NCBI RefSeq assembly: GCF_038871235.1
Contig: NZ_JAVZIN010000008.1
Span: forward strand, 1 to 64,000
Reading direction: 5' to 3'
Source of the DNA: Candidatus Hadarchaeum sp.
GTDB lineage: Archaea; Hadarchaeota; Hadarchaeia; Hadarchaeales; Hadarchaeaceae
Length of the DNA stretch: 64,000 bases
The position numbers and the translations under genes are program-made. This document shows, piece after piece, positions 36,058 through 46,881 of this stretch (its first letter is position 1; each line of letters begins with the position of its first letter). Under the pieces are notes generated by a model. That model was given only the letters and a program-made list of their open reading frames with translations. It had not been told where the DNA came from and made no database searches.

Positions 36058-36142
36058 GCGGGGGTAGCCAAGCCAGGTTGAAGGCGCTGGCTTCAGGAGC
36101 CAGTCCCGTAGGGGTTCGGGGGTTCAAATCCCCTCCCCCGCA
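36058..36142 (+). tRNA. tRNA-Leu(CAG)
   Basis: Acceptor GCGGGGG/CCCCCGC+A; anticodon arm CTGGC-TTCAGGA-GCCAG; long variable arm; GGTTCAAATCC T-loop. Confidence 0.96.
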
Positions 36143-36241
36143 CCTATGTGAGATCTAAGCGGTCCAAAACAAATGATGAAATTATTGTTGGTTTCCGCGG
36201 TAAATCTCCGCAAAATTGCTGCGGGACTATAAATTTAAAAA

Positions 36242-44156: not shown

Positions 44157-45317
44157 TTAGATATGTAACTCGACGACGTCCCTGTCTTCCAGCACGTAGT
44201 CCCGCGTGACCTGTTGACCTGGGAATCTGGTCGAACCCCAAACCCGCGCGAACTTCAGCTCCTTGGCAAAATCCTTATGGACTGAGCGGGCCACGTCCAT
44301 GACTGTGGAGCCCCGAGGCAAAACTAAAGGGCGTCCCGCTGGCTTCTCGTCTGGTTTCTTGGTGTAGACGCGAATCAAGTCGAGCTGCTGGTAAATCCTT
44401 CTCTTCAGGTCATCTGGTTTTTCGCCCGTATGCAGCACTTCAAGCAGCCCCCCGAACTCCCGCCTAATCACTTCCAACTTTTCGGCGGCGTTAGGTGTGT
44501 CAAATTTAGTCAACAAAATAAAGCCTCTAGGGTAAACATTCGACTCGGAAAGGGCTTCCTCAAAGTCCTCAGGGGTGATGGGTTCTTCAATCACAACGAA
44601 AGCATTGTGGATGCGGTGCTCCTGTAGAATTCGCTTTATTTCTACCTCCCCGCCCTCAACCAGTTTCGCCCCTTTTATTTCGATGCCACCACTGGAGCGT
44701 TTTTCGATGCTGACCTTTGGTGGCCTGCAATTCAGCTTGACGCCTACGGCCTCCAGCTCGTTAAGCAAAATTCTGATTTGGTTGACTGGTTCATCGGAAG
44801 CATCGACGACAAGCGCGATGGCGTCGGCGTTACGAGCCACGCTCAGTGGGCGAGCGCCGAGACCTCGACCATAGCTTGAACCCTCAACTATGGCGGGCAC
44901 CTCGACTAACTGTACTTGCACGTCCTCAAACTGCATCATGCCTGGAACAGGACATCTAGTCGTGAACGGATAATCGGCAACCTCGACGCGAGCGCTGGTA
45001 AGGTCCCGCAGAATTTTTGACTTGCCTGAGTTTGGTAGGCCCACTAGAGCCACCTGCGCTGCTCCCTCCTTCTTAACTGAAAAGCTGGGCCCACCACCTC
45101 GACCAATTTTTTTCTCGCGCTTCTCTTCCAATTCCAACCGCAATTTTGCCAGACGGTGCTTAAGCGTCTTTAACAGCTTCTCCGAACCCTTATGCTTCGG
45201 CGCTACTCGGATCATTTCCTCTGTGGCTTTGATCTTTTCCTCCAGCGTTCTGGCCTGAAGATAGCGCTCCTCCGCTTTTTTATATTCGGGAGTAACATTG
45301 GCCGGCAAGATGATCAA
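44157..45317 (-). CDS. DRG/OBG family GTPase with TGS domain
   Basis: PKHKGSE, GLPNSGKS, YPFTT, RVYTK, FARVWG. Confidence 0.9.
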   Translation of the reverse strand: MIILPANVTPEYKKAEERYLQARTLEEKIKATEEMIRVAPKHKGSEKLLKTLKHRLAKLRLELEEKREKKIGRGGGPSFSVKKEGAAQVALVGLPNSGKSKILRDLTSARVEVADYPFTTRCPVPGMMQFEDVQVQLVEVPAIVEGSSYGRGLGARPLSVARNADAIALVVDASDEPVNQIRILLNELEAVGVKLNCRPPKVSIEKRSSGGIEIKGAKLVEGGEVEIKRILQEHRIHNAFVVIEEPITPEDFEEALSESNVYPRGFILLTKFDTPNAAEKLEVIRREFGGLLEVLHTGEKPDDLKRRIYQQLDLIRVYTKKPDEKPAGRPLVLPRGSTVMDVARSVHKDFAKELKFARVWGSTRFPGQQVTRDYVLEDRDVVELHI

Positions 45318-45462
45318 TGAAAATTTAATCTTTCATAGACAAAAATTTGCCGAAACGGTTTAAGCTAACTTTTACCTAAATATTGGAAGTCTAATTCCTA
45401 AACTGGAAATATCTCCATTTTGCAAAAAATCCTTAAATAAAAACAAACTCTAATCTTAACTT

Positions 45463-45693
45463 GGCGGGGATGGTAGCCCGCAGAAGAGGTCGAACCGGAG
45501 CCTACGGGCAACGGGGATCCGTGCAAAAACCCGGGCTAAAAACCGGGGAAGGGCGCGGATAATTCCTGTGGAAGAACAGGATGGGACAAACGCTGCGGGA
45601 AGAAGACCCTGACGAGAAAAAATGGCGAGCAAGCGAGGTGGTCGAGGTTCGCGAGCTCGTTAGGAGAGTATTGGAGGGGTCGAAATCCCCGCC
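45463..45693 (+). ncRNA. Unassigned structured RNA (~231 nt)
   Basis: Terminal stem GGCGGGGAT/ATCCCCGCC, several internal helices, cUACGg tetraloop, upstream TTAAATAA box and downstream T-run. Confidence 0.75.
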
Positions 45694-45705
45694 GCTTTTT
45701 TTAGG

Positions 45706-46881
45706 TTAAGTGAGAAACTTGAAATATTTCAATGCTCTTCTAATCCCGATGGATTTCAAGAGTTCTGGCGCCTTTGCAACCAGCGCAATGATTAACTTTT
45801 CGTGATGGTCAAAATCAAAATTTTTCAACACCGTCTCTCTGACTTCCTCATCCATCAAAAAGGTGGATAAAAAATTAAGATCCTCATTTGACATCTGATC
45901 AAACAATTTCTTGATCTGGATGCCAACGCTGAACTCCGTGCCGAACTTTTTCATGACCGCTTCCTGGTAACACTCAAGTTCTTCCATTCTGCCGCTTTCG
46001 AGAGCGTTTATCACGGCCTCGGCCGCAAGTTTGGCACAGGACAAACCGATGTAAATGCCTCCGCCAGTGAGCGGCTTAACCTGCCCGGCGGCATCCCCAA
46101 CTAGAAGCACCGCTCCCTTTTGAATCTTACGGGACATACATTTCGGGATCACACCCGTGCATCGGCTGAAGATAGTTTTACCAACCTTTTTGGAAGCTAC
46201 TGGGTGCTCGGAAAGAAATTTTTTAAACAATCGAGTTGGATTGCCACTCTTAGCGCCTAGGCCCACTCTGGCAACCCTGCCGGCTTTAACCATCCAACTA
46301 AAGAATCCTGGTGAAAAATTGTTATCTAGATAAATTTCAGCGACGCCGTTATCTAGGTCCGCCTCCGCCTCTACCTGTGCACATTTGATGTACTCATTGC
46401 TGACCAAAAGACCTGACTTGCGAGCAACAACGGAAAGTGGACCATCAGCTCCAATCACAACCCGAGCTTTTAACTTATCCACATCTTGGGTTTTTACCAT
46501 TGGCCCATCATTGAACGCAATATCAACACACCTTTTGTTCAAAACTAGGTCCGCGCCGGCCTTGACCGCGGCATCGGCTAGCGAACGGTCAAATTTCACC
46601 CGGTCTATCACCAACGCCTCAACTTTCCCTCTTGTCAATTCAATGGGGACATTAGAAGGGGGATAAATCTTGGCTCTTCTTAACTTGCCCAACACCCATT
46701 TTCCGGGTTTGATACCGAGCTCTCCAAGGCCACTCGCGCCCACTATGCCAGTACAGCAAGCGGGTTTGCCCACCTCGGAGTGCTCCTCGACTATCGCCAC
46801 CCTGAGCCCGCGCGCTGCCAAGATTTTCCCGGCAAAACACCCCGCCGGCCCTGCGCCAACAATTAGGACGTCAGTTTCCAT
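45706..46881 (-). CDS. Geranylgeranyl reductase family (archaeal lipid saturation)
   Basis: GAGPAG, GADG, PGFFSW, GDAAGQVKPLTGGGI. Confidence 0.88.
   Translation of the reverse strand: METDVLIVGAGPAGCFAGKILAARGLRVAIVEEHSEVGKPACCTGIVGASGLGELGIKPGKWVLGKLRRAKIYPPSNVPIELTRGKVEALVIDRVKFDRSLADAAVKAGADLVLNKRCVDIAFNDGPMVKTQDVDKLKARVVIGADGPLSVVARKSGLLVSNEYIKCAQVEAEADLDNGVAEIYLDNNFSPGFFSWMVKAGRVARVGLGAKSGNPTRLFKKFLSEHPVASKKVGKTIFSRCTGVIPKCMSRKIQKGAVLLVGDAAGQVKPLTGGGIYIGLSCAKLAAEAVINALESGRMEELECYQEAVMKKFGTEFSVGIQIKKLFDQMSNEDLNFLSTFLMDEEVRETVLKNFDFDHHEKLIIALVAKAPELLKSIGIRRALKYFKFLT

Follow-up and report, generated by a model that had tools for sequence, protein, structure and literature searches.

A new family of structured RNA genes in Hadarchaeota, with hints of a circular form

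Large orphan non-coding RNAs (ncRNAs) have been described from bacteria, among them OLE, GOLLD, ROOL, raiA and HEARO. Few large RNAs combine a complex fold with strong covariation while lacking a known function, and scarcely any of these come from archaea. Here we describe a structured RNA of 231 nucleotides (nt), encoded at positions 45463-45693 on the plus strand of a 64,000-nt stretch of DNA from Candidatus Hadarchaeum sp. (hereafter the window; NCBI RefSeq assembly GCF_038871235.1, contig NZ_JAVZIN010000008.1, positions 1 to 64,000). It shares with the bacterial RNAs a conserved complex fold of more than 200 nt, strong covariation, invariant unpaired nucleotides and a narrow taxonomic range. 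Unlike them, it comes from archaea, is smaller, exists as several types of paralogue within a genome, and resembles none of them in sequence or model. The family occurs in a single phylum, an uncultured one that inhabits hot springs and the deep subsurface.

The RNAs of archaeal ribonuclease P (RNase P; RF00373) and of the signal recognition particle (SRP; RF01857) are also GC-rich, stable, multi-helix RNAs of 200-300 nt, transcribed separately from an AT-richer intergenic setting. The new family differs from them in having no match to their models, in being multi-copy and in its limitation to one phylum. With 5S ribosomal RNA (rRNA) it has in common a terminal helix closing a three-way junction, a loop-E-like GAA/AGUA loop in the 3' domain, its own promoter and T-run, and a seeming abundance. 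In contrast to 5S rRNA, it has no match to RF00001, its domain I is a four-way junction, and it is absent from some complete relatives. The 5S rRNA of Halococcus carries a large insertion. Y RNA and YrlA, the partners of Ro60, are comparable in their end-pairing stem, their abundance and their paralogous copies. However, the new RNA is much larger and folds differently, and no TROVE/Ro60 gene (PF05731) was found in the genome to which the window belongs (G000; 1.2 Mb, 16 contigs labelled C, 94.75% complete).

Circular ncRNAs reported from archaea include C/D box small RNAs (sRNAs), rRNA intermediates and isoforms of the IS200/IS605 omega-RNA (PMC3326292, PMC9014305, PMC12558985). As in those cases, the terminal helix of the new RNA juxtaposes its ends, and contigs from RNA sequencing (RNA-seq) run from its 3' end directly into its 5' end, making it a candidate circle. 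It differs in that it carries no C/D or H/ACA boxes and has no adjacent tnpB, and the Rnl-type ligase reported for C/D sRNAs is not clearly present.

The fold was established on 29 full-length copies, on which a covariance model was also built. A structure-blind MAFFT alignment gave, with RNAalifold, a consensus of 61 pairs in 10 helices. Standard pairs occupied 97.8% of 1764 cells; sliding the 3' partners by 1-3 columns reduced this to 35-45%. Compensatory changes on both sides were found in 36 of the 61 pairs (172 cells), compared with means of 19.7 pairs and 42.7 cells in shuffled alignments. None of 500 shuffles reached the observed covariation on any measure, a test inflated by the kinship of the sequences; the slid-register control is free of this effect. 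All 10 helices contained at least one compensatory pair. When the alignment was extended to 69 sequences, the 21 column pairs with the highest mutual information were all predicted pairs. Such compensatory evolution indicates selection on the fold, and the support for the secondary structure is exceptionally good. G-U pairs filled 141 of the 1764 cells and A-C combinations only 13, an excess from which the RNA is read from the plus strand.

The window copy itself has a folding energy of -114.5 kcal/mol, versus -74.6 ± 4.2 kcal/mol in 200 dinucleotide shuffles, none of which was as good (z = -9.53). Its minimum free energy structure makes up 40% of the ensemble. The reverse complement folds worse (-82.8 kcal/mol, z = -5.5).

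The RNA consists of a closing helix, P1, and two domains at a three-way junction, and the window copy scores 248.2 bits against the model. The 5' strand of P1 (45463-45469) pairs with 45687-45693. This 7-bp conserved core, with three compensatory pairs among its seven, is extended to 9 bp in the window (45463-71/45685-93). Domain I (45477-45599) comprises P2-P6, each with at least one compensatory pair. P2 (45477-83/45593-99) and P3 (45489-91/45585-87) lead to the hairpin P4, CCG-GA-GCC(UACG)GGC-AA-CGG with a 2x2 purine loop (45495-514), to P5 (45519-24/45553-58 plus 45530-34/45543-47), which has a conserved AAAAA/GAAGG internal loop, and to the variable hairpin P6 (45563-68/45577-82). Domain II (45605-45681) comprises P7 (45605-09/45677-81), P8 (45613-15/45671-73) and the covariation-supported helices P9 (45623-29/45656-62) and P10 (45633-37/45648-52).

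The region had first been proposed as a structured RNA in an initial annotation of the window, from the letters of this one copy. Five of its seven helices were right. P1, P2 and P4 were borne out by the consensus fold as drawn, P5 had been given an outer helix one pair longer (45518-24/45553-59, enclosing 45530-34/45543-47), and P6 had been drawn as 45564-69/45576-81. For the remaining two, 45608-16/45656-64 and 45625-30/45647-52, the 3' strands were correct and the 5' partners were not, the covarying pairs being those of P9 and P10. P3, P7 and P8 had been missed. The asymmetry of G-U pairs between strands, also pointed out there, is real, and the covariation among homologues that it suggested looking for is strong and involves many of them.

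Three types of paralogue were distinguished. Type 1, to which the window copy belongs, is about 231 nt long and has an extended domain-II tip with a loop carrying UGGUCGAG. This motif was invariant in 29 of 29 type-1 copies, and the G preceding it was kept in 28. In the window, the P10 apical loop (45638-45647) carries GUGGUCGAG, a hallmark of type 1 that is not found in types 2 and 3, which have short apical loops. Type 2 is about 203 nt long and lies, in genus g8, ~90-105 nt upstream of the type-1 gene. Type 3, of about 202 nt, adjoins glnA. Here and below, f, g and L denote families, genera and loci within the Hadarchaeota set, and G016 and G037 are relatives of the window's genome.

Many unpaired nucleotides were unchanged across the three types: GAAC before P4, the purine loop in P4, AAAAAC and GGRAGG in P5, UAA after P5, GRAA-AAG between the domains, and GAAA and AGUA in the large domain-II loop. 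In the window, the 5' strand of this last loop (GAAAAAA.., 45616-45622) faces AGUA at 45667-45670. Its GAAA and AGUA are invariant or near-invariant in all types, and we take the loop to resemble a loop E or bulged-G module, going by the loop E consensus as generally given. Judged by their constancy in sequence, these unpaired nucleotides probably mark the functional core. The GUGGUCGAG segment had 31 complements in the genome, mostly in coding DNA, with no rRNA or transfer RNA (tRNA) target among them, and the 11-13-mers matched only the RNA genes themselves.

The RNA gene is an island of 55-60% GC inside intergenic DNA of 29-40% GC. Upstream of it lies a promoter (45424-45440, plus strand) with a B recognition element (BRE)-like A-run at 45424-45429 and the TATA box TTAAATAA at 45433-45440, which is -30 to -23 from G 45463. 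In a survey of 111 distinct copies aligned on their 5' ends, A made up 64-78% at -38 to -34 and A/T 96-99% at -29 to -25, and a further A-rich stretch lay at about -12 to -5. Position -1 was a pyrimidine in 96% and never G, and P1 begins with the purine next to it. A-run, A/T block and initiator form the BRE/TATA/initiator layout known from established work on archaeal promoters. By this phasing, the promoter is placed for a transcription start at about G 45463. A run of seven T, an archaeal terminator signal, starts 2 nt past P1 (45696-45702, plus strand). At least four T within 12 nt downstream of P1 were present in 95 of the 111 copies; type-3 copies have no T-run. Positions 45463-45693 are the gene for a discrete, separately transcribed structured RNA.

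Two alternative readings of the 3' part were examined. The P7 and P1 3' strands can form a hairpin, GGGG-UCGAAAU-CCCC (45677-45702), which is terminator-like and would compete with the native fold. As a conserved element before the T-run it was rejected, with an A-C mismatch in 3 of 29 copies (read by eye). A 42-amino-acid (aa) open reading frame (ORF) at 45581-45709 was rejected as a coding gene, its ATG being kept in just five of the 29 copies.

G000 contains three copies: the one in the window, a type-1 paralogue 80% identical over its full length beside IscU/IscS (C5:3908-4137; L002:1501-1730), and a 202-nt type-3 paralogue between the genes for glutamate dehydrogenase and glutamine synthetase (C5:21009-21210; L046:1501-1702), which scores 105.8 bits and is without a T-run. 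Homologues were detected by blastn in 39 of 61 relatives. The covariance model matched in 51 of 66 Hadarchaeota genomes. These had 1-6 matches each, including fragments located at the ends of contigs. By family, the genomes with a match were f1 39/45, f2 6/6, f3 1/1, f5 3/3, f4 1/9 and f6 0/1. No genome of two other archaeal phyla had a match (0 of 38 and 0 of 121). In genus g8, types 2 and 1 stand in tandem (L016:1211-1413 with 1501-1731; likewise L019, L022, L035, L037, L038 and L041), each gene with a TATA box and T-run of its own.

A strict IUPAC pattern retrieved 80 stretches from 185,579 species genomes (one genome per species). The record titles of these were Hadesarchaea/Hadarchae- (72), 'Candidatus Hodarchaeaceae' (5), 'uncultured archaeon' (2) and 'Methanobacteriota archaeon' (1), and all 80 sit in records of Hadarchaeota-type metagenome-assembled genomes. 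The pattern had at least 120 matches in metagenome contigs and none in 2.9 million viral contigs. All of the 100 pattern loci tested (all 80 from genomes plus the first 20 from metagenomes) were confirmed by the covariance model. On these sequence searches, the family appears restricted to the phylum Hadarchaeota.

Four RNA-seq runs from four studies were searched as Logan contigs, which show neither ends, strand nor level. The runs containing the stretch were mostly hot-spring metagenomes. Contigs in all four RNA-seq runs covered parts of the RNA. Their word depth cannot rank genes: contigs on the RNA reach thousands, and a contig identical to the window 41. The flank 45200-45459 was uncovered in the four runs, which carries no evidential weight. 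One contig of run X8 that is identical to the window bridges 45615-45931, that is, the 3' half of the RNA and the 3' end of the convergent downstream gene. It must reflect read-through of the T-run or an antisense 3' untranslated region, unless it stems from DNA in the library.

With high confidence, we regard the locus as belonging to a genuine family of RNA genes not previously in databases. No description of it was found in a search of open-access papers and bioRxiv. The initial annotation had called the locus a stand-alone multi-junction RNA outside known classes, a view now supported by Rfam, covariation, RNA-seq contigs and paralogues. The metatranscriptome contigs and the recurrence in homologues of the noted TATA box and T-run agree with it. 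Its description as an orphan was mistaken in one sense, given a family with 1-6 model matches in a genome. The RNA is a tractable target, being of a size fit for structure determination and having hundreds of natural variants for covariation.

The explanation that we consider probable, taken as a whole, is that this new Hadarchaeota gene family encodes a trans-acting scaffold or architectural RNA, some molecules of which would be circular. The near-invariant purine-rich core (the junctions, the AAAAA/GAAGG loop and the loop-E-like GAA/AGUA module) would be the working part, a binding platform for protein or RNA. On this view the RNA would act neither as a guide nor as a cis-regulator; it would be architectural, or else would scaffold an RNA-protein particle. 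Paralogues differ mainly at the domain-II tip, which may point to divided roles. P1 would bring both ends together, and 3'-5' ligation of some molecules could yield a circle, which in a hot-spring organism would be shielded from exonucleases.

A guide function is unlikely because the core segments do not vary between paralogues, and a role in cis is unlikely because the surroundings of the copies are unrelated and each copy has a promoter and terminator of its own. With both disfavoured, a trans-acting scaffold or architectural RNA is preferred, although that mechanism by itself remains a tentative assignment. C/D box and H/ACA guide sRNAs were rejected upon alignment inspection against the known box consensus sequences: UGA stretches are unconserved, and the segment past domain II reads GAAAU, GAAGU or GAGAU, not ACA. 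The large internal loop, invariant among paralogues, is also unlike a guide pocket. A bolder version is that the three types form a new class of abundant, largely circular, protein-free or protein-bound structural RNA that assembles into a particle, possibly ribosome-associated or homo- or hetero-oligomeric, without counterpart in other archaea; this we consider speculative and unlikely.

The hints of a circular form come from run X8. In one contig the 3' end of a family member (...GUUCCCGCC) is followed by AU and then by GCGGGG..., and in another ...CCCCGCC is followed by AC and then by the 5' start of an f2-like member. An X8 contig of word depth 1462 goes back 210 nt and, compared with L011, is without exactly the outer six bp of P1. 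The two extra junction bases equal the first two genomic bases past P1 in the nearest relatives (AT in L018; AC in L030 and L031). These contigs fit a 3'-to-5' ligated circle of which the reverse transcriptase skipped the sealed P1 hairpin. RtcB, a ligase able to seal RNA ends, is encoded at C2:119502-120809. For the circular form the chances are about even. If true, it would represent a new kind of substrate for archaeal RNA circularisation.

Several observations weigh against the proposed trans-acting, partly circular RNA. The junction-type contigs are three in number and come from the single run X8, and reverse-transcriptase template switching on an abundant RNA could mimic 3'-5' junctions. 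The joined 5' end is without the first G, though the promoter phasing predicts this G as the start. The ATP-dependent Rnl-type RNA ligase family is known to circularise archaeal small RNAs; it gave weak matches (about 30 bits) to ORFs of ~540-820 aa, none of them in G000. Even with lax filters, the model did not detect the RNA in G016 (9 contigs, 95% complete) or in four further relatives; it is therefore truly missing from some lineages. In G016 about 56 nt separate the genes that flank the RNA in the window, and no RNA gene lies in this gap. Likewise, none of the seven genus g15 genomes had a model match. Absence from well-assembled Hadarchaeota genomes means that the RNA is not essential to the phylum. 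No partner protein emerged either: four candidates were traced over the 66 genomes, of which three fail to track the RNA and one tracks it partly, its family being missing from all three g2 genomes with the RNA even by profile search. Finally, the adjacency of some copies to family-B DNA polymerase (PolB) genes in f2 and f5 may leave room for an ancestral role in cis. Because some complete genomes are without the RNA, a natural knock-out set is available which could reveal its role.

The search for a partner contrasted G000 proteins common to G037 (distant, with the RNA) with their absence or weakness in G016 (without the RNA). This profile was fitted by 94 G000 proteins, 59 of them annotated, mostly for tungsten/molybdenum cofactor (molybdopterin) synthesis, for AOR enzymes and DnaK/DnaJ/GrpE, and for the transport of cobalt and other substances. 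A TIGR00375-family protein, a KH-domain ATPase and AOR (in 62 of 66 genomes) were rejected as partners, as their distribution does not track the RNA. The fourth candidate was a 153-aa protein (P0001; C11:34626-35093, L296), which was chosen in a manner favouring agreement with the RNA. Its family agreed with the RNA in 52 of the 66 genomes (both in 41, RNA only in 10, protein only in 4, neither in 11). It had no Pfam or NCBIfam match. Its homologues fell into 47 clusters, of which the few named are Hadarchaeum or Methanobacteriota archaeon, and the family appears confined to Hadarchaeota-type sources. The predicted model (predicted local distance difference test, pLDDT, 82.9) gave no clear fold match, with a best Foldseek E of 0.03 and a best VIA Z of 5.2. 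Its gene has an acylphosphatase-like gene on one side and a large helicase-like gene on the other, as judged by eye from the sequences of the two. As a partner of the RNA, the 153-aa protein is a lead, not a finding.

The competing explanation that survives best, although we hold it to be rather unlikely, is a regulatory decoy resembling 6S or CsrB RNA, which would sequester RNA polymerase, a translational repressor or an RNA chaperone, with the paralogues serving dosage or condition-specific control. Several paralogues per genome, each with a strong promoter of its own, would fit such a decoy, as would the invariant and repeated single-stranded purine motifs and the dispensability of the RNA in some lineages. 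However, the compact two-domain fold contains neither a repeated short binding motif of the CsrB type nor a long bubble hairpin of the 6S type, and no candidate target protein co-varies with the RNA.

Large ribozymes and aptamers typically have this size and multi-junction build, with near-invariant unpaired nucleotides set among covarying helices, and the purine-rich junctions could accordingly be read as the active site or pocket of a catalytic or ligand-binding RNA. Self-cleavage that leaves 5'-OH and cyclic-phosphate ends would also fit the joined 3'-5' ends together with RtcB. We consider this improbable: no ribozyme or riboswitch model of Rfam 15 matches, the top mutual-information pairs showed neither a pseudoknot nor long-range covariation other than that of the nested helices, and the 5' end is a canonical initiator site, so that a flanking self-cleaving unit is unneeded.

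The gene neighbourhood bears on a role in cis. In the window, the RNA gene is flanked by a gene for a DRG-type GTPase with MMR_HSR1 and TGS domains (44157-45317, minus strand), which diverges from it, and by one for a geranylgeranyl-reductase (GGR)-like FAD protein (45706-46881, minus strand), which is convergent with it and whose stop codon lies a few bases past the T-run. Both genes being on the opposite strand, a riboswitch or 5' leader was rejected here, in line with the earlier remark that no sense-strand gene follows. The order DRG-RNA-GGR recurs in most type-1 loci of f1; in 31 of 69 copies examined, the next ORF downstream is GGR-like, and a DRG-like gene stands upstream of most GGR-adjoined copies. 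This arrangement is ordinary conserved gene order. Other copies adjoin unrelated housekeeping genes (IscS/IscU, GDH/GlnA, PolB, TrkA, AOR), in both relative orientations.

A cis element would be either a processed 5' leader, ancestrally of PolB, or an antisense or convergent regulator of the GGR gene in the window. PolB lies on the same strand less than 100 nt downstream at six loci (f2 L030, L031 and L065; f5 L063 and L064; L021 of f1 genus g5), and in the window the closeness of the T-run to the GGR stop codon at 45706 and the contig bridging 45615-45931 point the same way. On the other hand, a T-run separates the RNA from PolB in the PolB-adjoining copies, the PolB gene of G000 (C5:79116-80645) has no family RNA nearby, and copies beside at least six unrelated gene pairs, in both orientations, keep the same core in all contexts. 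A function in cis is therefore very improbable as an explanation of the family. The PolB-adjoining lineages have just one or two model matches per genome, and the T-run of the RNA may double there as PolB promoter region. The position upstream of PolB may be the ancestral position of the RNA.

The family could also be a very divergent paralogue of a universal RNA, 5S-like or RNase P/MRP-like and possibly ribosome-associated; a very divergent known RNA had been the second option of the initial annotation. The terminal helix, three-way junction and GAA/AGUA internal loop prompted us to consider an expanded 5S rRNA. The gross topology is indeed 5S-like, the RNA is transcribed alone like the 5S rRNA of G000 and from the same kind of promoter, and matching contigs in one metatranscriptome have high word depths, though depth cannot rank genes. 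However, the region had no match at E<=10 to 5S (RF00001), RNase P (RF00373), SRP (RF01857), or large or small subunit rRNA models, as the initial annotation had expected for RNase P and SRP. The canonical genes are all present elsewhere in the genome: a 121-nt 5S rRNA at C1:83538-83658 (93.6 bits), RNase P RNA at C7:68657-68944 (198 bits) and SRP RNA at C14:14838-15145 (154.7 bits). The expanded-5S reading was rejected because of this canonical 5S gene and the lack of a model match, and by eye the G000 5S sequence had no evident similarity to the RNA. At E<=10, all of Rfam gave one meaningless lncRNA match on 45380-45760 and none on eight loci with divergent relatives. With the absence of the RNA from complete relatives added, descent from a universal RNA is highly improbable.

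A mobile or selfish element spread in Hadarchaeota genomes (a miniature inverted-repeat transposable element (MITE), a retroelement RNA or a virus-derived RNA), suggested by several copies per genome and by a syntenic site filled in the window and empty in G016, can practically be dismissed, as the paralogues are about 80% identical with promoters of their own, the DRG-RNA-GGR order recurs, no transposase, integrase or reverse transcriptase stands among the annotated neighbours, the viral contigs contain no match and compensatory evolution shows selection on the fold. The MITE that the initial annotation had named as a possible refutation is likewise not what these copies look like; the filled and empty sites are too diverged for judging duplications.

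Elsewhere in the window, Rfam 15 at gathering score gave no match besides a tRNA-Leu gene (36058-36142), and ARAGORN, searching for tRNA and tmRNA, found solely the same gene (36058-36144). Its product is a tRNA-Leu (CAG) whose variable arm is long, and the window has no other Rfam or ARAGORN match. G000 and G037 have in common AOR enzymes, the molybdopterin/tungsten cofactor pathway, DnaK/DnaJ/GrpE and the CbiMNQ transporter; G016 has none of these. The difference amounts to a sizeable metabolic reduction within one family.

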